32,000 nucleotides of DNA, from contig OY760660.1 of NCBI GenBank assembly GCA_963663995.1, positions 870,001-902,000 on the forward strand, given 5' to 3'. Shown piece by piece: positions 1,617 to 32,000 of the stretch (position 1 is its first letter; each line of letters starts with the position of its first letter). The notes under the pieces were generated by a model, which was not told the DNA's origin, did no database searches, and saw only the letters and a program-made list of their open reading frames with translations. The translations under genes were made by a program, and so were the position numbers. This DNA is from Erysipelotrichaceae bacterium. GTDB taxonomy: Bacteria; Bacillota_I; Bacilli_A; Erysipelotrichales; Erysipelotrichaceae.

Positions 1617-1617
1617 T

Positions 1618-8756: not shown

Positions 8757-9719
8757 GTGTATAATTATAATAAAGAGATTACAATAATTGTTCCAACTTA
8801 CAATGAAGAAATTAATATTCCATTAATTTACCAAAGGATCTCAGATTTATTTAATACTAAATTACAGAATTACAATTATAAAATACTATTTGTTGATAAT
8901 AAATCAAAAGATAAATCAAGAAGTGTGATAAGAATGTTGGCACAAAAAGATAAACGTGTTCAATATATTTTTTATGTTAGAAACTTCGGCTTTTCAAAAT
9001 CAACATTTTATGCTTTAGGCCAAGCAGAAGGAGATGCTGCTATACTTTTATTTGCTGATATGCAGGATCCACCTGAATTAATAGAAAAATTTATTTTTGA
9101 ATGGGAGAATGGATTTCAAGTTGTTATTGGTATAAAAAATAAAAGTCAGGAAAATAGAGTAATATATAAAATCCGTTCTCTATACTATTACTTTATTAAT
9201 GAAATTACCGAAATTGACCACATAAATCAATTTACTGGATTTGGACTATATGATAGAAAAATGCTAAATATTTTTTCAAGGATTGATGACCCACTTCCTT
9301 ATTTGAGAGGAATTGTCGCTGAGTTGTCCCCAGAATGTAAAAGAATTTACTATGAACAAGAAAAGAGAAAATATGGTAAAACTTCCTTTAATTTCTGGAA
9401 TCTTTATGATGTGGCTATGTTAGGAATAACATCTTATTCAAAATCATTAATGCGTATCGCAGTAATTATCGGTACGTTAATATCGACTATTAGTTTAGTT
9501 ATCGCATTTATAACTGTTATATTAAAAACAATGAAAATTATTGATTATCCAGTGGGTAATGCTGCTATACTTTTTGGAGTTTATTTATTTGGCGGACTTA
9601 TTACACTTTTCTTAGGTATACAAGGAGAGTACATTGCAAATATAAACATTAGGACAATGCATCATCCTATTGTAATAGAAGATGAAAGGCATAACTTAAC
9701 TGGTAAAAAGAATGCGTAA
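8757..9719 (+). CDS. GT2 polyprenyl-phosphate glycosyltransferase (GtrB/CsbB/ArnC/DPM1-like) with two C-terminal TM helices
   Basis: Carries 'IIVPTYNEEINI' and 'FADMQDPPE' (DxD-type motif of DPM1-like enzymes). Two hydrophobic helices sit at the C-terminus (LMRIAVIIGTLISTISLVIAFI; ILFGVYLFGGLITLFLGI). The start codon is GTG. Confidence 0.8.
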   Translation: MYNYNKEITIIVPTYNEEINIPLIYQRISDLFNTKLQNYNYKILFVDNKSKDKSRSVIRMLAQKDKRVQYIFYVRNFGFSKSTFYALGQAEGDAAILLFADMQDPPELIEKFIFEWENGFQVVIGIKNKSQENRVIYKIRSLYYYFINEITEIDHINQFTGFGLYDRKMLNIFSRIDDPLPYLRGIVAELSPECKRIYYEQEKRKYGKTSFNFWNLYDVAMLGITSYSKSLMRIAVIIGTLISTISLVIAFITVILKTMKIIDYPVGNAAILFGVYLFGGLITLFLGIQGEYIANINIRTMHHPIVIEDERHNLTGKKNA

Positions 9720-16059: not shown

Positions 16060-16091
16060 GCTAGTATTATATCTTGATAAATAATTTAAAA

Positions 16092-16104
16092 AAAATAATT
16101 TTAA
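16092..16104. repeat. Left copy of the 13-bp direct repeat (putative target-site duplication) of the IS30 element
   Basis: AAAATAATTTTAA is identical to 17324-17336 and abuts the IS30 inverted repeat. Confidence 0.6.
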
Positions 16105-17323
16105 CCTAAATTGCAATATCAACCCGTCCACTTTTTGAAATAAAGAAAATCAAGAATCATTAAGTTGTTTGAATTTGATTGTAGTGGAAAAGAATGGATT
16201 CAGTGGGTGTTTGATAATTGAGTATCTTACGTGGTAAGTGGTTCATGGAATGAACCACTTGGTCGATCGTTAAGTCAGATATCGTTTTTAATGATTTACC
16301 TTTAGGAATAGAACGTCTAATTATTCCATTGTGTCTTTCATTCGTTCCTCTTTCCCAAGATGAATAGGGATGAGCGAAGTAAACATCACTTAGATCTTGT
16401 ATAAGCTCTGATAAACCTGCAAACTCTGAGCCATTATCACTGGTAATGGATTTAAAGATTTGTGGAAAATGCGGATGATCTAGGTTTAATTGTTTAAGTC
16501 CTTCATTAACGGCTTCTTCATATTTGCCTTTAATCTTCAGAATGATTTGATAACGAGTTAGCCTTTCTGTCATAGTAAGCAGAACGGGTTCATCCTTTTT
16601 CTTCTTTCCGATGACAGTATCTATTTCCCAATGACCAAATGTGCTTCTGTCATTGATTTCTTGAGGTCTACAATCTATCGATTGACCTAAGACTCTACGA
16701 TGTTTAGGTGCTTTCTTAGACTTTGTCTTTCGTCTAAGTTTCAACCATAGATTTAAGTTATTCAAATCCTTGATTAAACCTCTATCAATATAGTTGTATA
16801 AGGTCTTAGCACAGACTGCTTCAGACCGATCAAAATGTCCTTCTTTTAAAGCTCGTCCGACGACAATATCAGGTGACCACTTATCAACACTAATCTTTTG
16901 TGTAGCGTAATCTATAAAGGCTTTTACCTTAGCTAGCTTGGGCTGTGGTCGACTGTTTAAGCGATGTCGCTCATAAACGATTTGACCCGTCTCTGCGTAA
17001 TAGAGTTCAGTGGTATAAGTATAACCATTCACAATCTTCTTTTGAATCGCTGAACCACGTTTGATTTCGTCGTTAATCGTTGAGTGACTTCGATTAAGAT
17101 TTTTCGCGATCAGCCGATTAGAATAGCCACATCGCTTCTGTGTTTGAATTTCTATCCGTTCAGACAAACTTAAATGTTGTCCTTTAGTTCTAGTCGTTAT
17201 ATCATTGTGTTGCATCGTTCATAAGTCCTTTCTCATGTGTTTCGCAACTTAATGATACTAGGATTCTTATGAATGGTGCTTTTCTTTTTCTAACGGGTGG
17301 ACGAGTTCATTTTACAATTGAGG
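16105..17323 (-). mobile_element. IS30-family insertion sequence (about 1219 bp), apparently intact
   Basis: A single transposase ORF is bounded by imperfect terminal inverted repeats. These are CCTAAATTGCAATATCAACCCGTCCAC at 16105-16131 and the reverse complement of 17297-17323, CCTCAATTGTAAAATGAACTCGTCCAC (22/27 identical). A direct repeat AAAATAATTTTAA flanks the element. It is visibly richer in G+C than its surroundings. Confidence 0.85.
16160..17215 (-). CDS. IS30-family transposase
   Basis: N-terminal HTH region ('LSLSERIEIQ...GYSNRLIAKNLNRSHSTINDEIKRG'). DDE core reads 'GHWEIDTV', 'SDNGSEFAG' and 'HPYSSWERGTNERHNGIIRR..PKG', all hallmark IS30 motifs. Confidence 0.93.
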   Translation of the reverse strand: MQHNDITTRTKGQHLSLSERIEIQTQKRCGYSNRLIAKNLNRSHSTINDEIKRGSAIQKKIVNGYTYTTELYYAETGQIVYERHRLNSRPQPKLAKVKAFIDYATQKISVDKWSPDIVVGRALKEGHFDRSEAVCAKTLYNYIDRGLIKDLNNLNLWLKLRRKTKSKKAPKHRRVLGQSIDCRPQEINDRSTFGHWEIDTVIGKKKKDEPVLLTMTERLTRYQIILKIKGKYEEAVNEGLKQLNLDHPHFPQIFKSITSDNGSEFAGLSELIQDLSDVYFAHPYSSWERGTNERHNGIIRRSIPKGKSLKTISDLTIDQVVHSMNHLPRKILNYQTPTESILFHYNQIQTT

Positions 17324-17336
17324 AAAATAATTTTAA
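17324..17336. repeat. Right copy of the 13-bp direct repeat of the IS30 element; it overlaps a local 11-bp x2 tandem (AATTTTAATAT, 17329-17350)
   Basis: AAAATAATTTTAA is identical to 16092-16104. The sequence is AT-rich and low in complexity, so part of the match could be chance. Confidence 0.55.
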
Positions 17337-17396
17337 TATAATTTTAATATAAGAATTCTAATAAGTGAAAATGTAACAAAACTATAACTATTAGCT

Positions 17397-17404
17397 CAAA
17401 ACAT
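17397..17404. repeat. Left copy of the direct repeat flanking the IS3 element (CAAAACAT)
   Basis: Identical to 18872-18879 and immediately outside the inverted repeat. Confidence 0.7.
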
Positions 17405-18871
17405 GGTAGGGGCGTGCGGACATAAAGTTGGACTTTAATAACCGTATTTTTGTCGATTTTCATTAATACTACATGCAAATTTTATTTTAATTCTAGTTTC
17501 ATTAAACCACACTAGATAATTATTTAAATATTCAATAAATTCTTCGGCGTTAAAATCTCTAAAATCTAATCCATAAAAACATTCATTTTTTATATGACCA
17601 AATACACCTTCGCAAGCAGCGTTATCACCCGTACAACCTTTCTTAGACATAGATCGAATAATATTGTGTTCTTTGGTGATATTTATCCAGTTACTCCATC
17701 GATAGTGTCCACCACGATCAGAATGAAGTATCACATTATCAGACTTCTTTAATGTCTTACATGCATCTATTAGTGATTCATTAGCTAGTTGTGCGTCAGG
17801 ACGAGTGCTCGTATTCCAAGAAATAATCTTCCCATCAAAACAGTCAACGATTGAAGAGAGGTATACTTTTTCATTTGATAACGCGAATTCAGTTATATCT
17901 GTGAGCCATTTTTGATTTGGATAATCAGATTTGAAATCTCGATTAATAATGTTGTCTGGAGCTTCTGATATTTCACCCTGATATGAGCTATACTTTCTTG
18001 TTTTCTTTTTGTACTTTGGGTTTAGTTCCATCTGTTTCATAAGACGACGTATAACCTTCTCAGAAACAATGACTCCTTGATTGTTTAGACTAATCTTTAT
18101 TCTTCGATAACCATATACACAACGGTTTAATTCATAAATTTCTTTTATTTTTAAACACAAATTTTCATACTTATCACGACTTTTTAATTTCTTTAGATGA
18201 TAATGATATGAACTTTTTGGAATGTTCAATCGTTCTAGTAAATCTTTCAATGGATATTCTTTTTTTAAGGCATTGATTAACTGGATTTTTTCACTATTTT
18301 TTAGTTTTAGATAACCAATGCCTTTATCTTTTTTTATTAAATCTAATGCCTCTTTAAGAAGATCTACTTCCATTTTTAATGATTTGATTTCATTTAAAAG
18401 TGAATTGATTTCTTCTGTATTCGCTTGTTTTATTTCTTTGTTTTCTGTGAGATTTGGTTTGATAATCTTCTGCTTATCTTTATTCATTAGTCCAATTAAT
18501 CCTTTGGTTTCAATTATTCTACGCCAATTATGAATGCTTTGTCGACTAACTCCCATCTCCTCTGCCACATATCTAACATCTTCCCCATCCTCAAAACATC
18601 GTTTAATGATTTTTATTTTAAGTTCTGGTGAAATCGTTTTCCGTTTTAGATATGAATAAGAGTCTGTATTTTTAATCTGATTATTAGAGTTTGTTTTTTC
18701 ACGACTTAACCAAAGGTAAATAGTAGCTTTTGTGGGATAACCTAATTTCCTCACGACTTGTGTTGCGCTTCTTTCTTCTCTATAAAGTTCTAAAGCTATT
18801 TTAACTTGTTGTTTTGAATAAGTTGGCATATTTCTCCTCTTTGTCCAACTTTATGTCCGCACGCCCCTCTC
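17405..18871 (-). mobile_element. IS3-family insertion sequence (about 1.47 kb), apparently intact, with a single fused transposase ORF
   Basis: Perfect 26-bp inverted repeats: AGGGGCGTGCGGACATAAAGTTGGAC at 17408-17433 and GTCCAACTTTATGTCCGCACGCCCCT at 18843-18868. They extend to 29 bp with 2 mismatches. The flanking direct repeat is CAAAACAT. If the ends are instead drawn as TG...CA (17404/18873), the duplication is AAACA. Confidence 0.88.
17435..18829 (-). CDS. IS3-family transposase, OrfA-OrfB fused in one frame (464 aa)
   Basis: N-terminal HTH regions, a coiled-coil/leucine-zipper stretch (EINSLLNEIKSLKMEVDLLKEALDLI) and an rve DDE domain ('WLTDITEF', 'HSDRGGHY', 'DNAACEGVFGHIKNE'). An AGGAGA Shine-Dalgarno precedes the start. 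Confidence 0.9.
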   Translation of the reverse strand: MPTYSKQQVKIALELYREERSATQVVRKLGYPTKATIYLWLSREKTNSNNQIKNTDSYSYLKRKTISPELKIKIIKRCFEDGEDVRYVAEEMGVSRQSIHNWRRIIETKGLIGLMNKDKQKIIKPNLTENKEIKQANTEEINSLLNEIKSLKMEVDLLKEALDLIKKDKGIGYLKLKNSEKIQLINALKKEYPLKDLLERLNIPKSSYHYHLKKLKSRDKYENLCLKIKEIYELNRCVYGYRRIKISLNNQGVIVSEKVIRRLMKQMELNPKYKKKTRKYSSYQGEISEAPDNIINRDFKSDYPNQKWLTDITEFALSNEKVYLSSIVDCFDGKIISWNTSTRPDAQLANESLIDACKTLKKSDNVILHSDRGGHYRWSNWINITKEHNIIRSMSKKGCTGDNAACEGVFGHIKNECFYGLDFRDFNAEEFIEYLNNYLVWFNETRIKIKFACSINENRQKYGY

Positions 18872-19995: not shown

Positions 19996-21354
19996 ATGAT
20001 TAAAACAAGTCGAAATGATATTATATGGAACTATGGTGCTAATCTTTTAAATATATTTGTTAGTATCCTAGTCTTACCTTTAATCCTTAAAATGTTAAGC
20101 CCAGATGAACTGGGTCTTTGGTATGTTTTTATATCAATTAGTAGTTTAGTTCTACTAATTGATTTTGGTTTTTCTACAACTCTACAAAGACATATTACCT
20201 ATGCGGTTTCTGGTGTATCAGAAATTTTAGAAATAGGTGTACCTACTCAAACTTCTGATAAACCAAATTACCCTTTAGTCAAAGCTATTGTTATAGCAGC
20301 AAAAAGAATCTATAGATCTTTATCTTATATTGCAGGACTATTTTTAGTCATAGCAGGATTCATCTATGTTGTTGGCATCTTACAAATTAGAGATACAGAA
20401 TTAGTCATAGCATGGGCAATTTATGCCTTAGGTTCCTATTTACAACTCATGACAAATTTTTGGATCCCAATTCTAAAAGGAAGTGGAGCCATAAAAGCTG
20501 CTAATAAAGTCTTTATCTTTTCTAAATCATCCTACTTGGTCTTTGCAGCCATTGGTTTAGCACTACATGGTGGTTTAATCCTACTTACTACAGCTTATTT
20601 GTTGTCGGTTGTTTTAAACTGGATATGGGCACGTTATGAGTTAAACAAACATTTAGGCGAGGACTATCTTAAATCACAACCACAAGACTCCTATGACGCG
20701 AAAAAAGTATTTAGAATTGTATGGCCAAATGCTAAACGCATGGGACTCGTTAATTTAGGATCATGGGCTACTAATAAAAGTTCTACCCTTATTAGCTCAT
20801 ACTTTTTAGGCTTAGACGTTACAGGACAACTCGGAGTAAGTATCCAACTCTTTACGGTGGTAGGTAATGTTGCAAACTTACTTCTTAACAGTTATCTACC
20901 AGAACTTGCTTCAACAAGAACTAACAATAGCAACATAAGATTCAAATTACTCTTTGCTAGATCAATGCTTGTGCAATGGATATTGACCATCCTAGGTAAT
21001 TTAAGTATTATCTTTATTCTCCCACTATTATTAACTCTTGTTGGTGTAAGTACGACTTTACTACCAGCAAAATGGTTAGCCTTATTAGGTTTCATACTCT
21101 TCTTAGAACAGAACCATTCTAGCTTTGCGACACTTATTACTCTTTCAAATAAAATACCTTTTGTAACATCCTCATTAATTTCAGGAATTGCTATCTTTAT
21201 AATATCTACTATATTTATGTATTTTGATTTTGGCATTGGTGCATTAATTCTTACTCAAGGTATAGTTCAGTTAACATATAACAATTGGAAATGGCCTTAT
21301 GTTGTTATAAAAGAAAATAATTTAAACCTTAAAACATTTATTGAAATATTTTAA
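19996..21354 (+). CDS. Wzx-like (MOP superfamily) oligosaccharide/polysaccharide flippase
   Basis: 452 aa with about 12 TM helices. The N-terminus 'NYGANLLNIFVSILVLPLILKMLSPDELGLWYVF' is typical of polysaccharide-biosynthesis (Wzx) proteins. The gene starts 2 nt after the GT2 stop. Confidence 0.6.
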   Translation: MIKTSRNDIIWNYGANLLNIFVSILVLPLILKMLSPDELGLWYVFISISSLVLLIDFGFSTTLQRHITYAVSGVSEILEIGVPTQTSDKPNYPLVKAIVIAAKRIYRSLSYIAGLFLVIAGFIYVVGILQIRDTELVIAWAIYALGSYLQLMTNFWIPILKGSGAIKAANKVFIFSKSSYLVFAAIGLALHGGLILLTTAYLLSVVLNWIWARYELNKHLGEDYLKSQPQDSYDAKKVFRIVWPNAKRMGLVNLGSWATNKSSTLISSYFLGLDVTGQLGVSIQLFTVVGNVANLLLNSYLPELASTRTNNSNIRFKLLFARSMLVQWILTILGNLSIIFILPLLLTLVGVSTTLLPAKWLALLGFILFLEQNHSSFATLITLSNKIPFVTSSLISGIAIFIISTIFMYFDFGIGALILTQGIVQLTYNNWKWPYVVIKENNLNLKTFIEIF

Positions 21355-21445: not shown

Positions 21446-21931
21446 ATGGAAAAACTCTTATCATTACTCAAAGAAAATGCACGTTACAGTGTTAAAGAAT
21501 TAAGTGTTCTACTTAATCAAAGTGAAGATGTGGTAGAGGCGGCCATTAAAGCCTATGAAACACAAGGTGTTTTAAAAGGCTATACCACAATTATTGATGA
21601 ATCTAAAATTGATGAAGCACCAGTTTATGCTTTAATTGAACTCAAAGTTGCTCCTAAAAAAGAAGCTGGCTTTCAAGACATTGCCGATCGCGTTATGTCA
21701 ATGGAAGAGGTTGAGTCAGTTTATTTAATGGCGGGTGTGTATGACCTAGCTGTTTTTGTTAAAGGGAAAACGATGCATGATGTAGCGATGTTTGTCGCCA
21801 AACGTCTAAGCACACTTGACGATGTTCTTTCTACCGCGACACATTTTGTATTATCAAAATATAAAGAAAGTGGTTTCATTCTAGATGATAAAAAAGATAT
21901 TGATCCTAGAGTAGAGTTATCTAAAGAATGA
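21446..21931 (+). CDS. Lrp/AsnC-family transcriptional regulator
   Basis: 161 aa. N-terminal wHTH ('LLKENARYSVKELSVLLNQSEDVVEAAIKAYETQGVLKGY') plus a C-terminal RAM/ligand domain. It overlaps the aminotransferase gene as ATGA, the same arrangement as Bacillus alaR-alaT. Confidence 0.85.
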   Translation: MEKLLSLLKENARYSVKELSVLLNQSEDVVEAAIKAYETQGVLKGYTTIIDESKIDEAPVYALIELKVAPKKEAGFQDIADRVMSMEEVESVYLMAGVYDLAVFVKGKTMHDVAMFVAKRLSTLDDVLSTATHFVLSKYKESGFILDDKKDIDPRVELSKE

Positions 21932-23094
21932 AGCATATAAACAACAAAATGCATCTCTTAAAACCAGGGATGCTTCATAAATATCTTGAGATATCATCAA
22001 ATCCTGATATCTTATCTTTAACTATTGGTGAACCTGACTTCCCTACCCCTTACCATATTCGTGAAGCTGGTATTAAAGCGATTGAAGATGGTAAAACTTT
22101 TTATACTCCATCAAAAGGATTATTATCTTTACGTAAAGAAATAGCTAACTTCTACGAAAGAAGTTATCACTTAACTTATGACCCGACTTCTGAAATACTT
22201 ACAACCATTGGTGCATCTGAAGGAATTGAATTAGCTTTACGAACACTCCTAAATGAAGACGATGAAGTTATTGTTGTTGGACCTGCTTACTTAAGTTATG
22301 AACCACTAATATTAATGGCTGGTGCTAAAGTTATTGAAGTTCAAACTAGCAGTCAAGATGGATTCAAACTAAAAGCAGACATACTAAAGGATAATATTAC
22401 AGATAAAACACGCATTATTGTCTTAAACTATCCTAATAATCCTACAGGTGCGATTATGACACTTGATGATTATATAGAATTAGAAAAAGTCTTAGTTGAT
22501 AAAGAAATTTATGTAATTTCAGATGAGATCTATAGTGAGTTAAATTATACAGGTTTACCTCATGCATCGATGGCTCAAATTCCGTCAATGAAAGAGAAGA
22601 CAATTGTATTAAATGGTTTTTCAAAAGCTTATTCAATGACTGGATGGAGACTAGGTTATATCTTAGCACACAAAGATTTAATAGATCTATTCGTTAAGTA
22701 TCATCAAAATGCGATTCTATGTCCACCTACGATTTCACAATTTGCAGGTATTGAAGCTTTAAAAAACGGTGATAGCGACATTGAACATATGCGTAGCCAA
22801 TATGATATGAGACGAAGATATGCAGTAGATAAACTTAACTCTATGGGTTTAACTGTTTCGAATCCTGATGGCGCATTCTACTTATTTACCAATGTCAAAG
22901 AAAAGACAGGTTTAGATTCTGAAACATTCTGTGAACAATTATTGGAATCGCAAAAAGTAGCTGTTATTCCTGGCATTGGATTCGGTGAAACAGGACGAGA
23001 CTTTATTCGTTTCTCATACTGTTATTCACTTGAACATATTAAAGAAGCCTTAGAAAAAATTGAAGTTTTCCTAAAACAACTAGCCAATGACTAG
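21928..23094 (+). CDS. Class I/II pyridoxal-phosphate aminotransferase (AlaT/AspC-like)
   Basis: 'NGFSKAYSMTGWRLGY' (PLP-lysine motif), 'NYPNNPTG', 388 aa. Confidence 0.85.
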   Translation: MKHINNKMHLLKPGMLHKYLEISSNPDILSLTIGEPDFPTPYHIREAGIKAIEDGKTFYTPSKGLLSLRKEIANFYERSYHLTYDPTSEILTTIGASEGIELALRTLLNEDDEVIVVGPAYLSYEPLILMAGAKVIEVQTSSQDGFKLKADILKDNITDKTRIIVLNYPNNPTGAIMTLDDYIELEKVLVDKEIYVISDEIYSELNYTGLPHASMAQIPSMKEKTIVLNGFSKAYSMTGWRLGYILAHKDLIDLFVKYHQNAILCPPTISQFAGIEALKNGDSDIEHMRSQYDMRRRYAVDKLNSMGLTVSNPDGAFYLFTNVKEKTGLDSETFCEQLLESQKVAVIPGIGFGETGRDFIRFSYCYSLEHIKEALEKIEVFLKQLAND

Positions 23095-23103
23095 TTGTTT
23101 TTT
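23073..23103. terminator. Candidate bidirectional hairpin terminator spanning the overlapping stops of two convergent genes
   Basis: AAAACAACTAG (23073-23083), loop CCAATGA, CTAGTTGTTTT (23091-23101), followed by further T residues on the plus strand. The 11-bp perfect stem has only 3 G:C pairs, so it is weak. Confidence 0.35.
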
Positions 23104-24983
23104 GTTATGCTGCATTCTATAAAATGTTCACTACATTCACTACTATTAAAATAATCATTCTCTATGATTTTTGGCCCAATAGTCAGTAATGTTTGAGCAT
23201 TTCCCAATCGATTAATCATTTCCTCATCACTCAAATCGTTAGGATTAGTAAACTCATCGTTAATTGAATTATAACTAAAATCACTAAACACAATATCCCC
23301 ATAATCATTAAAGTAAAAACCTTTGTAGGTTTCATCAAATAAATTATTTCCTAATACAAAATTCTTATTATATTGGAAACCCATTAAATCAAAAGTTGTT
23401 GGCAAAATATCTAGACTATTACTTTTTTTATCAATCGAACCAATAAATGAATCATTATTCCAAATGATAAGTGGTGTCTTCTTGCAGTTGTTATCCCCTA
23501 AATTACATAACTGTGATATGGTATCGGAACTTGAGAATGCCCCTTTTGCGTAATGATCACCAAAGATGATGATAACCAAGTCATCTATTCGACCACTATT
23601 CGTGAAATCAATAATCAAAGATCCTAAAGATCGATCAAAATCCATAATTTTTGCTAAATATACTTTTTCAGACTCTGGTAAATCTGGATATAATTCACTT
23701 AACCAATTATAATCATTCATAAATAATTCACTCATATATTCTAATGAATATGGTTGATGACCATTAAATGTGATCCAATAGCTAAAGAATTTTTCTCTCT
23801 CATATGATATCCATTTTATTGGGACTAAAAATCTTGAGTCTTCAATCTCTTGACCTTCAAAACCCATACGATATGAATCAAGGAAATCAAAACCAAGATG
23901 TGGTAACATATCATCTCTATTGTAGAACTCTGCATAATTATTATGAGCAGCCATAGACATATATCCATTTTCAGTAAACACGTTCGCTAATGTTACAGGA
24001 TACTCGACATCTGCATAGTTCATAAAAGTATTTTCACCTGTACTAACAGGTAATAGACTTGTATTTGCCATAAGTTCTGTATCACTAGTTGAACCAGCTA
24101 ACAATTGAGCATTAAACTCAGGGAATGTAAAGCCTTTTGTTTGCAATCGATAAAGATTAGGCGTGATTATTGGGTTAATAGCTAATTGCATCAATGATTC
24201 AGACTCAATCATTAACAAACTTTTACCTTCAAAAATACCAAAATATTGACTATCACTAATTTCGACTTTAGTACTTAACAAATTCGTTATTTCTTGATTA
24301 ATCTCTTCAGTATGTTCGGTATAAGGTTTAATCCATATTTCATATATGTCTTTCTGTAACAAACCTATAACGCCAAAATTTTCAACAAATTGTAGTGTGT
24401 TCGGGACTGTATTGTAAATATAATGTGTTGTTTTGTAGTATTGAAAAGGGTCAATACTATTTTTGTCTTCCAATATTGCTTGATTAAATTGGTAATATTG
24501 GTAATATAAAATACTTAAACTTAATAGAAATCCAACAGCGAAATAAACTAAATCACTCTTTCTTGATTTGCTCGTATAAAGATTTAAAATAATTGAGATA
24601 CTAATAAATAAGAGGAGTATCCATAAATATCGAAGATCATCTTTGATAAAAAACTCTTGCACACTTTCCCATGAGTTACGTATTTCTGATTGAGAACTTA
24701 ATAATGTTGTTAATCTACCATATTGACCAAAAGCTCTAAAATAAACAGATTGAGCCCACACATCTAATCCAATAATAATGAGAGTACTTGTAGACCAAAT
24801 TGTGTTAAACCATTTTGGAAACAACCAAATAACACTGCTAAAAAGTAATATCCACATAATAAATAACCAATTTGCATAATTAACATCTACACTTACAGGA
24901 GAATATAACCAGAAAGCAAACATTATAATCAAAATAATATGTATGATTCGATTAAATACTGGCTTTAATTTAAATTTCGACAT
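23091..24983 (-). CDS. LtaS-family protein (lipoteichoic-acid-synthase / phosphoglycerol-transferase-like; N-terminal TM domain plus extracellular sulfatase-fold domain)
   Basis: Five N-terminal TM helices are followed by a soluble domain with 'LLAGSTSDTELMANTSLLP', which matches the catalytic-Thr GxTSDxE motif of LtaS. 'IIFGDHY' is also present. I place the start at ATG 24983, preceded by GGGGAGAG. The ORF-track start (TTG 25004) adds 7 codons. Confidence 0.8.
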   Translation of the reverse strand: MSKFKLKPVFNRIIHIILIIMFAFWLYSPVSVDVNYANWLFIMWILLFSSVIWLFPKWFNTIWSTSTLIIIGLDVWAQSVYFRAFGQYGRLTTLLSSQSEIRNSWESVQEFFIKDDLRYLWILLLFISISIILNLYTSKSRKSDLVYFAVGFLLSLSILYYQYYQFNQAILEDKNSIDPFQYYKTTHYIYNTVPNTLQFVENFGVIGLLQKDIYEIWIKPYTEHTEEINQEITNLLSTKVEISDSQYFGIFEGKSLLMIESESLMQLAINPIITPNLYRLQTKGFTFPEFNAQLLAGSTSDTELMANTSLLPVSTGENTFMNYADVEYPVTLANVFTENGYMSMAAHNNYAEFYNRDDMLPHLGFDFLDSYRMGFEGQEIEDSRFLVPIKWISYEREKFFSYWITFNGHQPYSLEYMSELFMNDYNWLSELYPDLPESEKVYLAKIMDFDRSLGSLIIDFTNSGRIDDLVIIIFGDHYAKGAFSSSDTISQLCNLGDNNCKKTPLIIWNNDSFIGSIDKKSNSLDILPTTFDLMGFQYNKNFVLGNNLFDETYKGFYFNDYGDIVFSDFSYNSINDEFTNPNDLSDEEMINRLGNAQTLLTIGPKIIENDYFNSSECSEHFIECSITKNN

Positions 24984-25075
24984 CCATCTCTCCCCAAACA
25001 TCAATGTGATTCTAAACTATTATGAATTTAAAATGTTACAAAATTATTACTATTTTTTAATTTAATAACTTTAAG

Positions 25076-26803
25076 TCACTTATATTGAGTCAAAAATTTA
25101 TTGTTTAAATCATAAATATGATCACAACTATCTAATGAATCAACTCTGTGTGATACAACAATGATTGTCTTATGACCTTTTAATGAATTCAAAACATCTA
25201 AGATTTCTTTCTCTGTTTTATAGTCTAAAGCACTTGTAGCTTCATCAAAAATCAAGATATCTCGATTCATGTATAGAGCTCTTGCGATTCCTAAACGTTG
25301 TCTTTGTCCACCACTAAGTGAAAGACCTCTCTCTCCTACAATAGTTTCTAACTTATTAGGTAATTCCTTTTCAACCAAATCTAACAAAGAAACTTGTGAC
25401 AGTACATTTTTTATTTTAGTTTCATCAATTTCTGTTTTGTCATAACCTAATGCAATATTTTCTTTAATCGATGCATTTAAGATATATGTCTCTTGCGGTA
25501 TATACGCAAAAAGATTACTAGAAAGATTTAAATCTTTATGAGATACCAATTGATGATCAATTAATATTTGACCATCATTTGGTTGGTATAAGTTTAACAA
25601 TAAGTCTAATAGTGTTGTTTTTCCACTACCTGATGGTCCAAAAATTCCAATCATTTCATTTTTATGTATTTTAAGACTTAGATTTTCAAAAACAACATCA
25701 TTTCGATTCTTATAATTAAATGAAATATTCTTAAATTCGATATCATTATTAAAATGAATTTCATTCCCTTGTGTTTTAACAACTGTCTTAAATTCCAAAA
25801 TTTCTTCGAATTGCTTGAACACATCAATACTGGTTGAAAAACTATGTATCGCTGCATTTATTTTTAAAATAGAAGGCATCATTCGATAGATAGAGATCAA
25901 ATATAGACCTAATAATGGAATAATCGATTTAATATCCATTCCAAATAAACTCGCAAAAAATAGGATACCAATCACAAGTGTAAATACTGAAAGTTCAATA
26001 ATACTCTTTGGTAATTCAAAAACGATGGAATTTTTTATGTTTACTGCCTTAAAATGCTCAGAACTCATAGAAAAATTATTTAAAAAATAATGTTCTGTAT
26101 TTGTAACTCTTATTAACTTCATATTTGAAATAATATCATTCACAATTTTAAATCTTTGCCGGTTCTCCATGTTTGTTTCACGTCCAATTTTCCATAGAAT
26201 CCTCGTCGACAAAAATAAAAACAATGCTGCTAAAAGACTTAAGAAAAGAATAAGTATGATTGTTATTGTAGGATTTACAAAAATTAAAACGATTACAAAA
26301 AAAAGCAAAGTCATTATGTGAATAAAGAAATCCATCGTTGCGCCAATATATTGAACACTTATTTGTTGGCTATCCGATAATATGGATTTGCTTAAATCAC
26401 CAGTGTTCTTATTAGATAACATTTCATAAGGTAAATAAAGATACTTTTCTAAATACACTAGTGATAGTTCATGATATAAACGATAAACAAAACGACTTCT
26501 ATAAATAATTGCACCAAAGGATAAAACAGCTGCAATAATTTGTAAAACCAAAACAACAAGACCAATATTTATAATTGCTGACTTTTCAGATGATACTAAA
26601 AACAAGTTTCGTAAAACGATTGAGAATGAATTATTGCTTGTTTCATTCATTAATAAATCAATGTACGGAAAAACAAGCAATGATGAAAATACTGATATTA
26701 ATCCACTCAAAAACCCAATTATTATAACCCAGTTAAATGTTCGATAATCTTCTCTTTTTAAGTAGTTTTTTAAAAACTTAAAAACGATAAATAATTTATG
26801 CAT
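25076..26803 (-). CDS. ABC exporter, fused permease/ATPase (type I exporter, MsbA-like half transporter)
   Basis: Six N-terminal TM helices, Walker A 'GPSGSGKTT', signature 'LSGGQRQR', Walker B 'ILIFDEATSALD' and H-loop 'VSHR'. It overlaps the upstream gene by 8 nt. Confidence 0.88.
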   Translation of the reverse strand: MHKLFIVFKFLKNYLKREDYRTFNWVIIIGFLSGLISVFSSLLVFPYIDLLMNETSNNSFSIVLRNLFLVSSEKSAIINIGLVVLVLQIIAAVLSFGAIIYRSRFVYRLYHELSLVYLEKYLYLPYEMLSNKNTGDLSKSILSDSQQISVQYIGATMDFFIHIMTLLFFVIVLIFVNPTITIILILFLSLLAALFLFLSTRILWKIGRETNMENRQRFKIVNDIISNMKLIRVTNTEHYFLNNFSMSSEHFKAVNIKNSIVFELPKSIIELSVFTLVIGILFFASLFGMDIKSIIPLLGLYLISIYRMMPSILKINAAIHSFSTSIDVFKQFEEILEFKTVVKTQGNEIHFNNDIEFKNISFNYKNRNDVVFENLSLKIHKNEMIGIFGPSGSGKTTLLDLLLNLYQPNDGQILIDHQLVSHKDLNLSSNLFAYIPQETYILNASIKENIALGYDKTEIDETKIKNVLSQVSLLDLVEKELPNKLETIVGERGLSLSGGQRQRLGIARALYMNRDILIFDEATSALDYKTEKEILDVLNSLKGHKTIIVVSHRVDSLDSCDHIYDLNNKFLTQYK

Positions 26804-27836
26804 TTAGTACCTTTTCAATATGATAAGCAACATCACTTGCATTATCTGTTATAAACTCTCCGTGATAACAATCAATTTCAATAAGTTCTATACTTGAAAC
26901 ATGCTCTTTTATATAGGTATAACTTTTATAATTATTTTCCCTTAAGGCTAGATAATATTGAATTGAAAAATCATAAGATCTTCTTATCATTTTAGGAATA
27001 TAGCTAGCAATAATTGTTTTTACTTCTCGAGGAGTGAAATCTCTAGAGTTGTTGCTAATCTTTTCATTAATACTTCTAATTCTATTTCTCTTGTGGACAT
27101 GACGAATTGGTGAATTTACATAAAGAGTGTTAAGTTTAGATCCAAATAGTTTGACTAATCTTCCTAAATCCTTTCCTTTGCTTTGTTTAACAAACAAGTT
27201 ATACCCTTTTTTAAAGTCTAAATATTTATAATTATCTTTTCTAACAAACACTGTATCAAATAAAGCACAGAGTTTAATATCTCTATTTTTTTGATAAAGT
27301 TTATTTGAAATTTCTAAAGCCATTTGACCACCCATACTTAATCCTGCAAAAAAATATGGACCATTTGGATTAATTAATTCTATCTCTTGAATATAATCAT
27401 CAAGAATTTGATCCCAAGTAAGAGGAAATTCCCAATGTGACTCTTTGAAGTTAAAAACCAAGGTATAGATATCTCTATCTGTATTAATCGTATTGGCTAA
27501 TTGAAGATAAGTGATTGCTGTCCCATCTGGGTCATGACAAAAGATCAATGGTTCTTTATTAGATGTACCCTTCTTCAATAAAACTAGAAATTTAAGCTCA
27601 TTATTTTGAGGTTGCAGTTTAGCTTGAATAAAGTCAGCCTGCGATTCAACCGTTAGATATGGGAAAATTTCTTGCATGGGAAAATCTAAGTCAAAGATGA
27701 TTGAAATATCACTTATGACCTCTCCCAACTTAAGCGAATCACCACCAAGCGCAAAAAAATTATCAGTATTTTTAAAGTTACTTTTTTTTAATACATCTTT
27801 CCAAATATCAAATATCTTTAATTCAACTTCATTCAT
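26796..27836 (-). CDS. Carrier protein (PCP/ACP-like) fused to a thioesterase (alpha/beta-hydrolase) domain
   Basis: The N-terminal 'DNFFALGGDSLKLGEV' is the phosphopantetheine attachment motif (DxFFxLGGDSL). The downstream part has 'PLIFCHDPDGTAITY', the nucleophile elbow 'GLSMGG' (GxSxG) and a C-terminal 'CYHGEF' (catalytic His region). The start codon abuts the stop of the adenylating-enzyme gene. Confidence 0.8.
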   Translation of the reverse strand: MNEVELKIFDIWKDVLKKSNFKNTDNFFALGGDSLKLGEVISDISIIFDLDFPMQEIFPYLTVESQADFIQAKLQPQNNELKFLVLLKKGTSNKEPLIFCHDPDGTAITYLQLANTINTDRDIYTLVFNFKESHWEFPLTWDQILDDYIQEIELINPNGPYFFAGLSMGGQMALEISNKLYQKNRDIKLCALFDTVFVRKDNYKYLDFKKGYNLFVKQSKGKDLGRLVKLFGSKLNTLYVNSPIRHVHKRNRIRSINEKISNNSRDFTPREVKTIIASYIPKMIRRSYDFSIQYYLALRENNYKSYTYIKEHVSSIELIEIDCYHGEFITDNASDVAYHIEKVLNA

Positions 27837-29303
27837 TTATATTTCCTCAAATGTAATATCGATAGTACTTAAATATTGAAATAATTTATTTCTTTGTATT
27901 TTGGCTGATTCAGATTTAGGTAAACTCTTTACTTGATATAATCTTGTAGGTAGTTTGTAAGCTCGTATGTCTTTATTCATTAATAATTTTCTGATTTCAT
28001 AAATAGATATTTTCTCATCATTGCACGTTACAATAGCCACAGCGACATGTTCATGTTTATTATCTTTTAAATAAGGGAAAACCACAACTTCTCTCAATCT
28101 TTTATCTAATAAAAGTATTTTTTCAAGTTCATATGGAGATATTTTTTCGCCACCTTTATTAATAACTTCTTTCTTTCGACCAGTAATATACAAGTAACCA
28201 TCTTTTAAATAACCTAAGTCACCTGTTTTGAACCATCCATCATCGAAATATTCAGAATTATCAATGCCTTCATAACCATCAAAGACAGACTCGTGTTTAA
28301 CTTGTATTTCATCATCAACGATTCTAATCTGATGCAACATAGGTTGACCAACTGAATCTTGAATGTAACCTTTAGGTGAATCAATATTTGAGCAAATCGT
28401 TGTTGTCTCGGTTGCACCATATGTATGAATGATATGTGATTTATTAAATATTCTTTGGCATTGTTTATAAAGATCTTCTGATAAATATGAACCTAAAATG
28501 AGTAAATATTTGGGTTGTTTATCTAAAGTTAATTGGTGCTTATCAATAAAATTGAGCAAACCCATTAAATTAGAAGGTGCAATTCTAAAATCAGTTGGTT
28601 CCTTTTGTTGTAGCATCTTATAGATTAAATTGAAGTTAACACCATTACTAAAATAAGAAGTTGCTCCGACATAAATCATATTTAAGAACGTTTTCGAAGT
28701 ATTTGTACGAATCAACTGTGCAACTTGTAAACGTGAACGACTAGCATCATAACGAAATGAACTGACAAGCGTTTGATAGCGAGTGATGAGTTTATCAAAT
28801 GAATATGGAATCACTTTGTAATTAGAAGTTGTCCCTGAACTTTCAGCAACCATCGCAATATTACTTCCATTTTCAAATACTTTAGTTTTCTCAATTTTCG
28901 TTAGTTCAACTGAACTTATAGAAAATTTATTATAAATAATAAAATTTAATTTTTCATTTACCTTACTTAGTAGTCTATAGTAATGATCATTCGTTAAAAT
29001 ATAATCGATTTTGAAATGTTTGATTTTATCAATATTTACTTCGATAGAATCATTGATGGTAAATTGGATGCTACACCAATGATCAACTAAAGGTGCCGCA
29101 ACAAAAGGAATAAGTAAAGCATCTTCAGCAAGTACTGCTATACGAGCACGTCGAGGAATTAGCAACTCATTCATTTTTTCTACAAACAAATCATAAAACT
29201 GTGCAAGTTGCTCAAATGTGTATGCATCATCTAAACCAACCCCTAAGGCAATATGATTTTCTCTTTTTTTAATATGATCTTCAATAATTTCTCTAAAGGT
29301 CAT
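27837..29303 (-). CDS. Stand-alone adenylate-forming enzyme (ANL superfamily; A-domain / acyl-AMP ligase)
   Basis: Core motifs are 'SGTTSNYK' (A3), 'YGATETT' (A5), 'WFKTGDLGY' (A7), 'GRKKEVINKGGEKISPYELE' (A8) and a C-terminal 'LPKSESAKIQR' (A10 Lys). It overlaps the TAXI gene as ATGA. Confidence 0.85.
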   Translation of the reverse strand: MTFREIIEDHIKKRENHIALGVGLDDAYTFEQLAQFYDLFVEKMNELLIPRRARIAVLAEDALLIPFVAAPLVDHWCSIQFTINDSIEVNIDKIKHFKIDYILTNDHYYRLLSKVNEKLNFIIYNKFSISSVELTKIEKTKVFENGSNIAMVAESSGTTSNYKVIPYSFDKLITRYQTLVSSFRYDASRSRLQVAQLIRTNTSKTFLNMIYVGATSYFSNGVNFNLIYKMLQQKEPTDFRIAPSNLMGLLNFIDKHQLTLDKQPKYLLILGSYLSEDLYKQCQRIFNKSHIIHTYGATETTTICSNIDSPKGYIQDSVGQPMLHQIRIVDDEIQVKHESVFDGYEGIDNSEYFDDGWFKTGDLGYLKDGYLYITGRKKEVINKGGEKISPYELEKILLLDKRLREVVVFPYLKDNKHEHVAVAIVTCNDEKISIYEIRKLLMNKDIRAYKLPTRLYQVKSLPKSESAKIQRNKLFQYLSTIDITFEEI

Positions 29304-30283
29304 TCACTTAATACTCCAGCATCCATGTAAGCTCTTTTAGCCCCTTCTGAAAACGGAATAAGCTGTCCTTTTAATAAATCTTCTAGATTGTTGCTTTCAA
29401 TAGATGGAAGCACTTGTTTCATATAATCAAAATGTTCAATTATAGCTGTTACAATATTGTAAATAAGATCTTGATCTGCATGTGAATGAGATAATAACAC
29501 TGTATAAGTCTCAAAAGCACTGATATCAGTTGAAATAAAACTATAAGTATCACTTGATATTATTTTGGGGGAATATCCAGCTTTTGCAGCATATGTTTCT
29601 AATTTTTCAATATCAAAACTTAAAAGTGTCATATCACCTGAAGCAAATGTTTGAGAAATCAATGCACCTGGAACAGATGTGCTTAAAATATATCCATCTA
29701 AACTACCATCATTTAACATTTCTGCAATTTCACCTTGGTCAATATTTAATAACTCAACACCTTGATTTACTAAATCTTCTTCAGTCATATCATATGCTAA
29801 TAATGCTTGTTGCAAAAAAACTTGTGTTGCTCCGTCAGAATAGCGAATTTTCATGTTTTGATAATTATGTATAAATTCTTCAAAAGTAGTAATTCCTAAA
29901 TCAGATCTTAGAGCCAAATGAATAACGGATGAGTTGAATCCAGCTACAAAATTCAAATTTTCAAGTTTTTCATAATCAAACAAACCTTCGTTGTAATAAA
30001 CAGCTGTATTACTATTTGTGATTGCTAAATCTGCTTCTGCTTGTTCTAATCTAACTGGATTCCCTTTTGGTGATCCTAGTTCAATTTGAGTGACTGATCC
30101 AGGGAACTCATTTTCAATAGCACCCGCTATTGCATTCGCGAGCACAGCATAAGCTGTACCACCTGATCCTTCAATTAATGATAATTGCAGGGGTTCTACG
30201 ATCTTTTCCTCACTAACAGAACTTGAACATGCGCCTAAAAAGGTTAATAAAAAAACAATAAAGAATACTTTGATTTTATTCAT
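29300..30283 (-). CDS. TAXI-family TRAP transporter solute receptor, lipoprotein
   Basis: Signal peptide with lipobox 'FLGAC'. 'GSGGTAYAVLANAIAGAI...RLEQAEADLAITNSNTAVYY' matches the TAXI signature (GGTGG..Y..g.a.a......GEADlai.qsd.a.ya). It overlaps the permease gene as ATGA. Confidence 0.8.
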   Translation of the reverse strand: MNKIKVFFIVFLLTFLGACSSSVSEEKIVEPLQLSLIEGSGGTAYAVLANAIAGAIENEFPGSVTQIELGSPKGNPVRLEQAEADLAITNSNTAVYYNEGLFDYEKLENLNFVAGFNSSVIHLALRSDLGITTFEEFIHNYQNMKIRYSDGATQVFLQQALLAYDMTEEDLVNQGVELLNIDQGEIAEMLNDGSLDGYILSTSVPGALISQTFASGDMTLLSFDIEKLETYAAKAGYSPKIISSDTYSFISTDISAFETYTVLLSHSHADQDLIYNIVTAIIEHFDYMKQVLPSIESNNLEDLLKGQLIPFSEGAKRAYMDAGVLSE

Positions 30284-31992
30284 ATTAGAATCTCCTTTTT
30301 CTTTAATGAATATAAATAAATAATAATGAATAAACTGATTAATATAAAATAATAATTTGTCGTAAAAAATTGAATAAGTCCAGCACTGAAAACAATACTC
30401 TTTTTCAGAAAAATATATTTCTTATACTGAAACTCTAATGCATAAACGAGTAATATCGTCGCAATGATTAGTTTTGATAGAATAAATAAGAAATCTATCG
30501 AAAAACTAGGGGCTAAAATTGTAGGTTCTAATATGAAAGAAAAAGGAATTAAATACGCTACAAGGCTTAAAAACATCGCTTTAAAGGATACTTTTAAAAA
30601 AGACGCGTCAGCTATACTTGCTGCAGTAAGAGATGTAATGGCAACAGGTGGTGTTATCGAACCTAATGAAGCATAATAGAGAAAAAAGAAGTGGATAGGT
30701 AATAATTCATATCCTCTTTGTAATAAAATGGGTCCAAAGAAAATCGCACTAATAATATAGGTTGTTGGTGTATTTAGTGCTGTTCCAATGAATAAAATAA
30801 TTAAACCAATAACCGCCAAAGCTAAATAGAGATTCATTTGATAAATAAACGAAAAGTAAACCCCAAATTTAGAAACTAAACCCGTTAGATTTATGACACC
30901 AATGAATGTACCAGATGCTGCCATCATCGGTACGATAATCAATGTTCTTTTTATACCTTTAATCAATATTGAAGGTATAGTATTCCATTTAAAATCAGAA
31001 AATATTGTAAAAATAATAATAGTTAAAAGAATAGCCTCAAATGATGACTTCGAAATTGAACGACCACCACTAATTCTAAATACAAAATAGACTATAACGA
31101 CCAAAAAAGGTATTCCATCTTTCAAAATATCAATAAATGAATCCTTATTTTTTTCAATTTTAATATCTGTTTGAATTTTAGTAGCTCTTAAATCAACTGA
31201 AAGAAACAAACTAAAATAAAATAAAAGAGCCGGAATAATTGATGCCATTACGATTATACGATAATCGACTGCTATAAATTCTGACATTAAAAAAGCAACT
31301 GAACCAAGTACAGGTGGAGTAAAAGTACTTGCTGATGAAGCTGTACTTTCTATCGCAGCCGCAAAAACGGGAGAATACCCTTTTTCTATCATCGAAGGAA
31401 TAGTTATTGTTCCGGTTGCTGAAACATTACTTGCTCCACCACCTGTAATCATGCCAAATAAAGCAGAAGCAAGAACAGCTATTTTTCCAAAAGCTGATAT
31501 ACTCGAGTGTACAAAATATTCTAATAATCGAATGATAAATTTATCAAACCCCAAAGATATTAAAAAGGTACTAAACAAAAGAACGAAAACGAGTGTACCC
31601 GTAGCTGTACCCATGGTAACTCCCCAAATTCCATATCGACTAAGGAATAATGAATCAATAAAATCACTTAGCTCAAATCCTAAATGACCAAATCTTCCTG
31701 GAATAAATTGACCTAAAAAAACATACAAAATTGCGATAATATTTAGTGCTGGTAACCACCATCCGCCTTTTATTCTCGCACCTTCATTTATTACAATAAT
31801 CGTTAATAAACCCAATATAATTTGTGACAGAGAAACACTATCAACAAAAACTTCTCGCTCATACGATAGAAATTGAAAGTTTGAACATAAATAGATCGTC
31901 ACAATAATTGAAATAATTGAAAAAAAAATATTTTTATATTTCAATAAATTTTGATTCGATTTTAATTTTGAATTATTGCTGAAAAATATCAT
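30280..31992 (-). CDS. TRAP transporter fused permease (TAXI-type 4TM/12TM fusion)
   Basis: 570 aa and very hydrophobic (more than 14 helices). It lies immediately upstream of, and is coupled to, the TAXI receptor. The start at 31992 is only 8 nt from the window edge, so the 5' region and promoter are not visible. Confidence 0.75.
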   Translation of the reverse strand: MIFFSNNSKLKSNQNLLKYKNIFFSIISIIVTIYLCSNFQFLSYEREVFVDSVSLSQIILGLLTIIVINEGARIKGGWWLPALNIIAILYVFLGQFIPGRFGHLGFELSDFIDSLFLSRYGIWGVTMGTATGTLVFVLLFSTFLISLGFDKFIIRLLEYFVHSSISAFGKIAVLASALFGMITGGGASNVSATGTITIPSMIEKGYSPVFAAAIESTASSASTFTPPVLGSVAFLMSEFIAVDYRIIVMASIIPALLFYFSLFLSVDLRATKIQTDIKIEKNKDSFIDILKDGIPFLVVIVYFVFRISGGRSISKSSFEAILLTIIIFTIFSDFKWNTIPSILIKGIKRTLIIVPMMAASGTFIGVINLTGLVSKFGVYFSFIYQMNLYLALAVIGLIILFIGTALNTPTTYIISAIFFGPILLQRGYELLPIHFFFLYYASLGSITPPVAITSLTAASIADASFLKVSFKAMFLSLVAYLIPFSFILEPTILAPSFSIDFLFILSKLIIATILLVYALEFQYKKYIFLKKSIVFSAGLIQFFTTNYYFILISLFIIIYLYSLKKKEILI

Positions 31993-32000
31993 CGTAAAAT

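Follow-up and report, generated by a model that had tools for sequence, protein, structure and literature searches.

Why should the genes for a solute importer, an adenylating enzyme, a carrier protein with its own thioesterase and an exporter lie end to end in one operon that encodes no condensation domain? The question is raised by the minus strand of a 32,000-nucleotide stretch of an Erysipelotrichaceae bacterium genome (assembly GCA_963663995.1, contig OY760660.1, positions 870,001 to 902,000; this whole stretch is called the window here). A preliminary description, made from the letters alone, saw there a five-gene unit that reads, from 5' to 3', a fused TRAP permease, a TAXI lipoprotein, a stand-alone adenylating enzyme of the ANL superfamily (A), a peptidyl carrier protein (PCP)-thioesterase (TE) protein (T-TE) and an ATP-binding cassette (ABC) exporter, and proposed that an external acid is imported, adenylated, tethered, released and exported. 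We find that only part of this unit is conserved in other lineages, namely the importer together with A and T-TE, and for its function we tentatively favour transfer of the imported acid to an acceptor of the cell envelope.

An open reading frame (ORF) scan recovered all five genes where the preliminary description had placed them (Table 1), and inspection of the sequence confirmed how closely they are joined. The TRAP/TAXI (...CTAATATGAATAAA) and TAXI/A (...AGTGAATGACC) junctions are ATGA overlaps, the start codon of T-TE comes immediately after the stop codon of A (...ATATAAATGAAT), and the T-TE and ABC genes overlap by 8 nt (...CTAAATGCATAAATT). The five genes thus form one tightly coupled unit, as had been proposed, all of the catalytic motifs that had been named are present in the translations, and a condensation domain is indeed absent from the operon. 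The unit does not, however, end at position 25076. A sixth gene on the same strand, encoding an LtaS-like membrane protein, follows the ABC gene after an AT-rich gap of 71 nt, and no terminator-like hairpin was found between the two; the only hairpin is a bidirectional one at the far end of the LtaS-like gene, which is the probable 3' end of the transcription unit. At the other end, the TRAP frame has no in-frame stop from 31992 to the window edge (it is open to position 32000), the first model position matched by the permease is 44, and homologues exceed it in length by 70-80 residues, so that the TRAP gene, and possibly the operon too, may start outside the window.

Table 1. Features of the importer/A/T-TE operon and its immediate neighbours, in window coordinates.
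Feature	Coordinates	Strand	Basis and remarks
TRAP transporter fused (DctQM-type) permease	30280..31992	-	TIGR02123, PF06808, hydropathy; possibly 5'-truncated by window edge
TAXI-family solute-binding lipoprotein	29300..30283	-	TIGR02122, PF16868; lipobox FLGAC; ATGA overlap with permease gene
Stand-alone adenylating enzyme (A), ANL superfamily, 488 aa	27837..29303	-	PF00501 and PF13193; ATGA overlap with TAXI gene
PCP and type I thioesterase (T-TE)	26796..27836	-	PF00550 and PF00975; start directly after A stop
Half-size ABC exporter (transmembrane domain-nucleotide-binding domain), PglK/HepA/MsbA-like	25076..26803	-	PF00664 and PF00005; 8-nt overlap with T-TE
LtaS-like membrane protein, extracellular sulfatase-fold domain	23091..25004	-	PF00884, NF053595; last gene on strand
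Terminator-like hairpin	23073..23101	.	11-bp stem and T-run; common to converging LtaS-like and aminotransferase genes
AsnC/Lrp-type regulator and class I aminotransferase	21446..23094	+	Pfam and NCBIfam; converge on operon; syntenic neighbours

The combination of TRAP/TAXI, A and T-TE recurs in six other lineages (L001, L102, L003/L004, L098 and L099), usually with overlapping genes, in two gene orders and with A and T-TE either fused or split. The order is TRAP-TAXI-A-T-TE in L001, where the T-TE stop codon lies 40 nt from the aminotransferase gene of the same converging aminotransferase/AsnC pair, and TRAP-TAXI-fused A-T-TE in L102. In L003/L004 and in L099 a fused A-T-TE gene precedes TRAP and TAXI, and in L098 the order is GT2, A-T-TE, TRAP and a TAXI gene that runs into the end of the contig. 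Identities to the window proteins (TRAP, TAXI, A and T-TE, respectively) were 55, 43, 44 and 36% in L001; 46, 35, 41 and 34% in L102; 38, 28, 38 and 29% in L098; 38, 27, 32 and 25% in L003; and 37, 30, 33 and 26% in L099. The values therefore co-vary over the four proteins, as predicted for co-inheritance as one module. In two further loci (L002 and L100) the gene of a PhnD-like lipoprotein binding protein overlaps the A-T-TE gene, and a TRAP permease is lacking.

Neither the ABC exporter nor the LtaS-like gene adjoins the module in the six TRAP-linked or the two solute-binding protein (SBP)-linked loci, and the exporter is missing in every relative examined, including the syntenic L001. The five genes are therefore not conserved as a unit. 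Because the loci of the relatives lack both, we conclude that the conserved unit is the importer (or at least a binding protein) with A and T-TE, a quartet and not a quintet, and that the ABC gene and the LtaS-like gene are local additions in this genome. The bracketing of an enzyme by uptake and export, which had seemed to define the system, is not a conserved feature.

The coupling of uptake to adenylation, tethering and release is nonetheless not accidental, given its recurrence in six lineages with overlapping genes and concordant divergence. One could suppose that the TRAP-TAXI system imports an unrelated nutrient and that A and T-TE serve another pathway with partners elsewhere, since TRAP genes are common and the identity of the TAXI ligand with the A substrate is itself inferred. 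Such a chance juxtaposition would have to account for adjacency in six other lineages with overlapping start and stop codons, whichever of the two gene orders occurs and whether A and T-TE are fused or split, for divergence in step, and for more distant metagenomic A-T-TE genes, which have no TRAP/TAXI neighbour, and we regard it as scarcely credible. In a scan of metagenomes with the A alignment, most matches were to ordinary acyl-CoA synthetases.

Comparison of L001 (1-6970) with the window (21446-31992) showed 71% and 73% identity for the flanking AsnC and aminotransferase genes but only 36-55% for the module proteins. This contrast suggests that the module diverges rapidly or that its alleles are replaced at a fixed site of the chromosome, and a module that diverges more than its flanks is typical of surface-structure (surface-antigen) loci. 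Two candidates for further members of the module were rejected. GT2 was dismissed as a fifth member, since the genes near L098 and L102 are not orthologues of each other. The aminotransferase and AsnC-type regulator, considered as pathway members by comparison with TdiD and RalD, owe their adjacency to synteny with a single related genome, and the module is much less conserved than they are. The variant module of L002 (4365-9660) and L100 (461-5233) contains an A-T-TE protein with a Cys nucleophile and is followed by conserved proteins of about 326 and 251 aa without a significant family match.

Both components of the window importer exceed curated NCBIfam cut-offs. In profile searches the permease scored 361 bits against TIGR02123 (cut-off 321), and a hydropathy scan gave about 13 hydrophobic segments; the lipoprotein, with the signal FLGAC, scored 122 bits against TIGR02122 (cut-off 84), which places it in the TAXI family. 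A fused Q-M membrane component encoded beside a TAXI protein is also the arrangement of characterised TAXI-TRAP systems (VcGluP/VC0430, Thermus GluBP, the Proteus alpha-ketoglutarate TAXI protein), by analogy with which uptake of an organic or amino acid is expected. The nearest solved structures of the window protein are all TAXI proteins (8u79/1us4, the glutamate-binding protein of Thermus; 4ddd; 8s4j), but the relationship is distant, with only about 20-25% identity to characterised members. A dedicated coupling to an adenylation/carrier/TE enzyme, as present here, was not found for any characterised TAXI-TRAP system in the literature searched. No Rfam match to a riboswitch or leader that might hint at the ligand was found beside any module. 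In L102 (2941-3025, minus strand) a riboswitch of the c-di-GMP-II class scored 55 bits, which exceeds the gathering score; it lies about 2 kb from the TRAP/A-T-TE module and upstream of a gene for a 496-aa protein without a Pfam match.

TRAP-TAXI systems typically take up nutrients, among them glutamate, glutamine and alpha-ketoglutarate (PMC11574862), and the module could accordingly serve nutrient assimilation or detoxification. An imported carboxylate would then be epimerised or lactonised as a carrier thioester, or passed from the carrier to CoA or a different thiol, and would enter metabolism afterwards, in a carrier-protein version of vectorial acylation. Metabolic or redox genes lie beside the module in L102 and L003, its flank in the window and in L001 holds genes for an aminotransferase and an AsnC-type regulator, and some type I TEs epimerise their substrates, 7crn and the NocB TE being among the structural matches of the window protein. 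The aminotransferase/AsnC adjacency, however, is synteny between two related genomes and is absent elsewhere, and a carrier and TE would be an unusual choice for catabolism and would cost ATP. Moreover, the family is rare and patchy, unlike a core nutrient route, and the module is here embedded in, and translationally coupled to, envelope genes. We consider assimilation improbable, and both this reading and chance juxtaposition less likely than transfer to the envelope or the making of a small molecule.

The core motifs of the A enzyme, A3 (SSGTTSNYK), A5 (YGATE), A7 (FKTGDLG), A8 (GRKKEVINKGGEKISPYE) and A10 (the Lys in SAKIQR), align with those of homologues and solved ANL enzymes, as expected for a member of this superfamily. 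Its NCBIfam matches were all below cut-off, the best being a fatty-acid-CoA ligase subfamily and MenE, and the nearest PDB entries were the oxalate-CoA ligases 8aff/6qjz/5ie0 (E ~1e-27), followed by dihydroxybenzoate (DHB)-AMP ligases and MenE. The A domains of non-ribosomal peptide synthetases (NRPSs) matched in the C-terminal subdomain only, with about 45 bits. Judged by its sequence, the enzyme sits in the acyl-CoA-synthetase branch of the ANL superfamily and not in the NRPS A-domain branch; the impression that its A7 and A8 motifs resemble those of acyl-CoA ligases was correct, as the NCBIfam and PDB matches show.

The stretch SFRYDAS had been taken for the A4 motif FDxS and thus for a hint of an alpha-amino or alpha-substituted acid. 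Alignments to homologues and solved ANL enzymes revealed this to be an artefact, and we rejected it: the segment that truly corresponds to A4 is AQLIRTNTS, 12 residues downstream of YDAS, and it aligns with PLFHVHG of the oxalate-CoA ligases and with the His-Asn segment of a DhbE-type enzyme. Arg200 and Thr201 correspond to His234 and Asn235 of the DhbE-type enzyme, and to the first His and the next residue of PLFHVHG. Since Thr201 stands at the position of Asp235 in amino-acid-activating domains, the enzyme lacks the NRPS FDxS/Asp235 signature and gives no sign of alpha-amino recognition. The A4 pocket column holds Arg or Lys in 16 of 18 family members (Arg200 in the window) and His in outgroup A-T-TE proteins and oxalate-CoA ligases; P0038 and P0057 retain PLFHIHG. 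Arg200 in place of the usual His may be taken as a cautious hint of an extra negative charge on the substrate, which would fit the organic and amino acids carried by TAXI systems. One may speculate that the substrate is anionic or a dicarboxylate.

The T-TE protein carries Ser34 of the carrier domain in GGDSL and the TE residues Ser167 (in GLSMGG), Asp194 and His325. Ser34 is conserved in the family alignment, Asp194 and His325 are invariant, and the nucleophile at the place of Ser167 varies between Ser and Cys. With a carrier Ser, an alpha/beta-hydrolase fold and a GxSxG/Asp/His triad, it has the composition of a type I TE with an upstream carrier. Its AlphaFold2 (AF2) model (pLDDT 77, with the lid modelled at low confidence) matches the T-TE didomains of EntF, AB3403 and SulM; these, ObiF1 and the Pks13 TE were the top Foldseek matches, and the Pks13 TE is among the sequence matches as well. 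The lid between Asp and His has 130 residues and a net charge of +14 in the window protein, and in nearly all family members it has about 123-139 residues and a net charge of +7 to +19. An assignment of TE function from the fold was tried and discarded as uninformative, because TEs that hydrolyse, cyclise, epimerise or transfer all occur among the Foldseek matches.

The family to which this protein belongs is rare and unstudied, and occurs in gut and environmental bacteria. A word-indexed search of 5.8 billion proteins with T-TE gave six matches, one of them the protein itself, and an exhaustive HMMER scan of 1.84 billion representatives gave about a dozen full-length matches that include the lid; thousands of others were multimodular NRPSs aligning to the carrier and the first half of the TE. 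The closest relatives of the A enzyme were P0010 (44% identity), the one that is split, and fused A-T-TE proteins, 707-850 aa long, which formed a tight group at 159-218 bits, well apart from ordinary acyl-CoA synthetases at 146 bits or less. The HMMER scan and the A-enzyme search together define about 20 sequence clusters, in which the two proteins are either split, as in the window, or fused, as in P0011-P0018 and P0250. An alignment of the family (P0011-P0018, P0250-P0385) showed two TE subgroups that also differ around the nucleophile, one with Ser in GxSxGGRxALE, to which the window protein belongs, and one with Cys in GxCxGGVLA, which makes up about half of the family. A scan of genome contigs found only generic NRPS T-TE loci, and the search for plasmid-borne relatives only generic NRPS T-TE proteins with at most 26% identity. 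Another carrier/TE set in an envelope-polymer context was seen in L005/L006 (8001-17161), where two distant T-TE didomain proteins and a stand-alone AMP-binding enzyme are encoded next to polysaccharide export genes; the same set includes aminotransferases, a thiamine pyrophosphate (TPP) enzyme and proteins resembling homoserine O-succinyltransferase and flavin monooxygenase.

The ABC exporter has intact motifs (Walker A GPSGSGKT, signature LSGGQRQR, Walker B ILIFDEATS), and its best NCBIfam matches were PglK (NF050066, 302 bits), HepA (258) and MsbA (257). All of these lie far below the cut-offs, which for PglK is 1000 bits, so that the likeness is one of type only and not of an equivalog. 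The substrates moved by PglK, HepA and MsbA are lipid-linked glycans, envelope polysaccharide and lipid A. Over most of its length the window protein is at most 34% identical to any homologue; a near one, P0135, lies in a polysaccharide locus with GT4, NeuB and epimerase genes, and both it and the window protein thus have the location in a glycan biosynthesis locus that is expected of the PglK type. An anti-phage defence search returned only generic ABC ATPase matches. The LtaS-like protein joins an N-terminal membrane domain to its extracellular sulfatase-fold domain, the architecture of the LtaS family. In this protein the catalytic Thr306 lies in STSD and the metal-site residues GDH at 482-484, both as in the LtaS family, although the score against the lipoteichoic acid synthase model NF053595 (99 bits) is below its cut-off of 970. 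The solved structures nearest to it in the PDB are LtaS/LtaP of Listeria and LtaS of S. aureus, and its true start is likely the ATG at 24983, after GGAG. That the ABC protein exports the product released by the TE is one possible reading, for which the 8-nt overlap speaks, and against which stand the relatives without an exporter, the PglK-like type and the LtaS-like gene that follows.

This bears on a rival reading, in essence the preliminary model, in which the module is a minimal NRPS-like cluster for a small molecule: the acid is loaded, the TE cyclises it to a lactone or lactam or, in the manner of iterative TEs, joins two or three units, and the ABC protein exports the product here, with other exit routes or an intracellular action elsewhere. 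ObiF1 and SulM, whose TEs form a beta-lactone and a beta-lactam, also have a Cys nucleophile, like about half of the family. A-T-TE enzymes without a condensation domain are known whose products arise through the chemistry of the TE alone, for example by dimerisation of aryl-alpha-keto acids (PMC9047271). Furthermore, the module is self-sufficient and is kept without envelope genes in L003 and L099, and its T-TE gene overlaps that of the ABC protein here. However, no exporter is conserved in the relatives, the ABC protein is nearer to lipid and glycan flippases than to metabolite or peptide exporters and is followed by the LtaS-like gene, the A enzyme belongs to the acyl-CoA-synthetase branch and is not an NRPS aryl-keto-acid A domain, and the uniformly basic lid is left unexplained. 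We regard a small-molecule product as somewhat unlikely, yet as a serious rival.

The reading that we favour, again tentatively, is transfer of the acid to an envelope acceptor. From what is known of these families we infer that the TRAP-TAXI system works in the direction of import, that A loads the carrier and that the imported solute is the substrate of A; as the importer is the only conserved partner, the substrate probably comes from outside the cell and is probably what the TAXI protein binds. The TAXI lipoprotein and the fused TRAP permease would thus import an extracellular organic acid, which A would activate and load as a thioester onto the phosphopantetheine arm of the T-TE protein. 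The TE, through Ser167, Asp194 and His325, would then take the acyl group from the carrier and, rather than hydrolysing it, might pass it on to an acceptor that is anionic and membrane-associated and offers a hydroxyl or amino group. Candidate acceptors are glycolipids, lipids of the phosphatidylglycerol type and polyprenyl-linked precursors of a polymer resembling teichoic acid, and the long, strongly basic lid would dock them. In this genome the PglK-like ABC protein could move the product outward and the LtaS-like enzyme could use it, and the scavenged acid would end as a substituent of a surface polymer. The role of the TE as a transferase, the identity of the acceptor and the roles of the ABC and LtaS-like proteins are speculative parts of this scheme.

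Several observations led us to favour it. The lid is basic throughout the family; the module is coupled here to a PglK-like ABC gene and an LtaS-like gene, and diverges beyond its flanks in L001. The whole 32-kb window is a cell-envelope glycopolymer locus, and L002 lies amid TupA-type ATP-grasp, epimerase, CpsD-like, hexapeptide-transferase and other exopolysaccharide-like genes. A GT2 gene stands directly upstream of the module in L098 and two genes upstream in L102. The Pks13 TE, an acyl-to-sugar transferase, provides a precedent for transfer by a TE.

Other observations weigh against envelope transfer. Whether the TE is a hydrolase, a cyclase or a transferase is not readable from its sequence or fold, and its best structural matches include cyclising and beta-lactone- or beta-lactam-forming TEs. 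No acceptor-specific enzyme is conserved with the module in the loci of the relatives, and no envelope genes were seen near L003/L004 and L099. The GT2 genes near L098 and L102 are orthologous neither to each other nor to those of the window, so the link to glycans could reflect insertion of the module into variable regions. The PglK-type assignment is weak, type I secretion and bacteriocin exporters scoring only slightly below PglK for the ABC protein, and no phosphopantetheinyl transferase is encoded within the window. Finally, TAXI ligands are not predictable from distant homology (PMC11574862).

Comparison with known systems shows which elements of the module are familiar. The NRPS-like A-T-TE enzymes (TdiA, the atromentin and polyporic acid synthetases, bacterial RalA) share with it the A-T-TE order, the lack of a condensation domain and a TE as the only product-forming catalyst, and automated tools would call both 'NRPS-like'. 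However, enzymes of the TdiA/AtrA/RalA type have NRPS-type A domains for aromatic alpha-keto acids and an aminotransferase partner that makes the substrate, whereas the window system has an acyl-CoA-synthetase-like A enzyme split from T-TE, Arg or Lys in the A4 pocket, an importer as partner and a long basic lid. The analogy drawn earlier with dimerisation of aryl-alpha-keto acids therefore extends to domain order only, and fails at the A domain.

Envelope transfer finds parallels in DltABCD, which D-alanylates teichoic acids, and AlmEFG, which adds glycine to lipid A; there a stand-alone A enzyme also loads a small carrier and the acyl group goes to an envelope polymer. Here a type I TE fused to the carrier would replace the AlmG-type transferase, the substrate would be imported rather than made in the cell, the envelope destination is hypothetical and the operon has an LtaS-like enzyme in addition. 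No DltA model is among the best matches listed for the A enzyme, and no MBOAT (DltB) or DltD-like protein was found among the window ORFs, which sets the system apart from Dlt. In FadD32-Pks13-MmpL3 an ANL enzyme loads a carrier, a TE acylates a sugar hydroxyl (mycolate to trehalose) and a dedicated membrane exporter follows; the window system differs in having no ketosynthase or chain assembly and an ABC rather than a resistance-nodulation-division (RND) exporter, and its transferase activity is putative. The Lic pathway of Streptococcus pneumoniae shares the logic of scavenging an exogenous molecule, activating it in the cytoplasm and decorating a teichoic-acid precursor before flipping, but uses a kinase, a cytidylyltransferase and a phosphotransferase in place of adenylation, a thioester and a TE, so that this analogy is conceptual only.

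GC content is a uniform 22-35% across the window, the remainder of which contains genes for a nucleotidyltransferase, a 4,6-dehydratase, a DegT aminotransferase, a GtrA-like protein, a TPP-dependent enzyme, an HMGL-like enzyme and a short-chain dehydrogenase/reductase (SDR), as well as for two GT2 proteins, an epimerase, a GT87-like membrane protein and YfhO. The first seven form an NDP-sugar gene run on the minus strand (951-8598), suggesting an unusual deoxysugar, possibly branched-chain or amino. A 181-aa ORF (475-1020, minus strand) overlaps the upstream SDR gene by 70 nt, and its match to 3-dehydroquinate synthase is confined to the N-terminal domain of that enzyme. It may be what is left of a gene after truncation or a frameshift, or else a sugar-cyclase-like fragment. 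The GtrA-like, GT2 and YfhO genes (5044-5448, 8757-9719 and 11928-14243) occur together in the window, near the LtaS-like gene, and we take them to be the three-component set of extracytoplasmic teichoic acid glycosylation. Two polytopic membrane proteins without a Pfam match (14233-16131, minus strand, and 19996-21354, plus strand), with about 11 and 9 hydrophobic segments, respectively, may be of the polymerase, flippase or ligase type. Transposase genes of the IS30 family (HTH_38 and rve) and the IS3 family (helix-turn-helix and rve) lie mid-locus (16160-18829, minus strand), and the only matches of these insertion sequences were remote IS30 matches in Bacillota plasmids.

No NCBIfam equivalog covers A, T-TE, the ABC protein or the LtaS-like protein, and no description of an importer-coupled A-T-TE system was found in the literature or the curated family libraries searched. 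The parts are thus known, and their conserved combination, with a dedicated, high-affinity importer as the only conserved partner of an A enzyme, a carrier and a TE, is undescribed as far as we searched. The arrangement implies that the substrate is scavenged rather than made, which makes the chemistry of the system unusually accessible. If the product is a small molecule, the module would represent a new class of 'NRPS-like' clusters, very compact and fed with a ready-made precursor, which genome-mining tools can flag without being able to interpret them. A bolder proposal, which we judge unlikely as it stands, is that TRAP-TAXI, A and T-TE form a new route by which a scavenged host- or diet-derived acid decorates the Gram-positive envelope, the basic-lid TE placing it, as an acyltransferase, on a membrane-bound teichoic-acid or glycolipid precursor. 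If true, it would be a third activation logic beside Dlt for D-alanine and Lic for choline, completed here by a PglK-like flippase and an LtaS-like enzyme, and if the TE does graft the acid onto envelope polymers, gut Bacillota would have a new way to remodel their surface with environmental metabolites.

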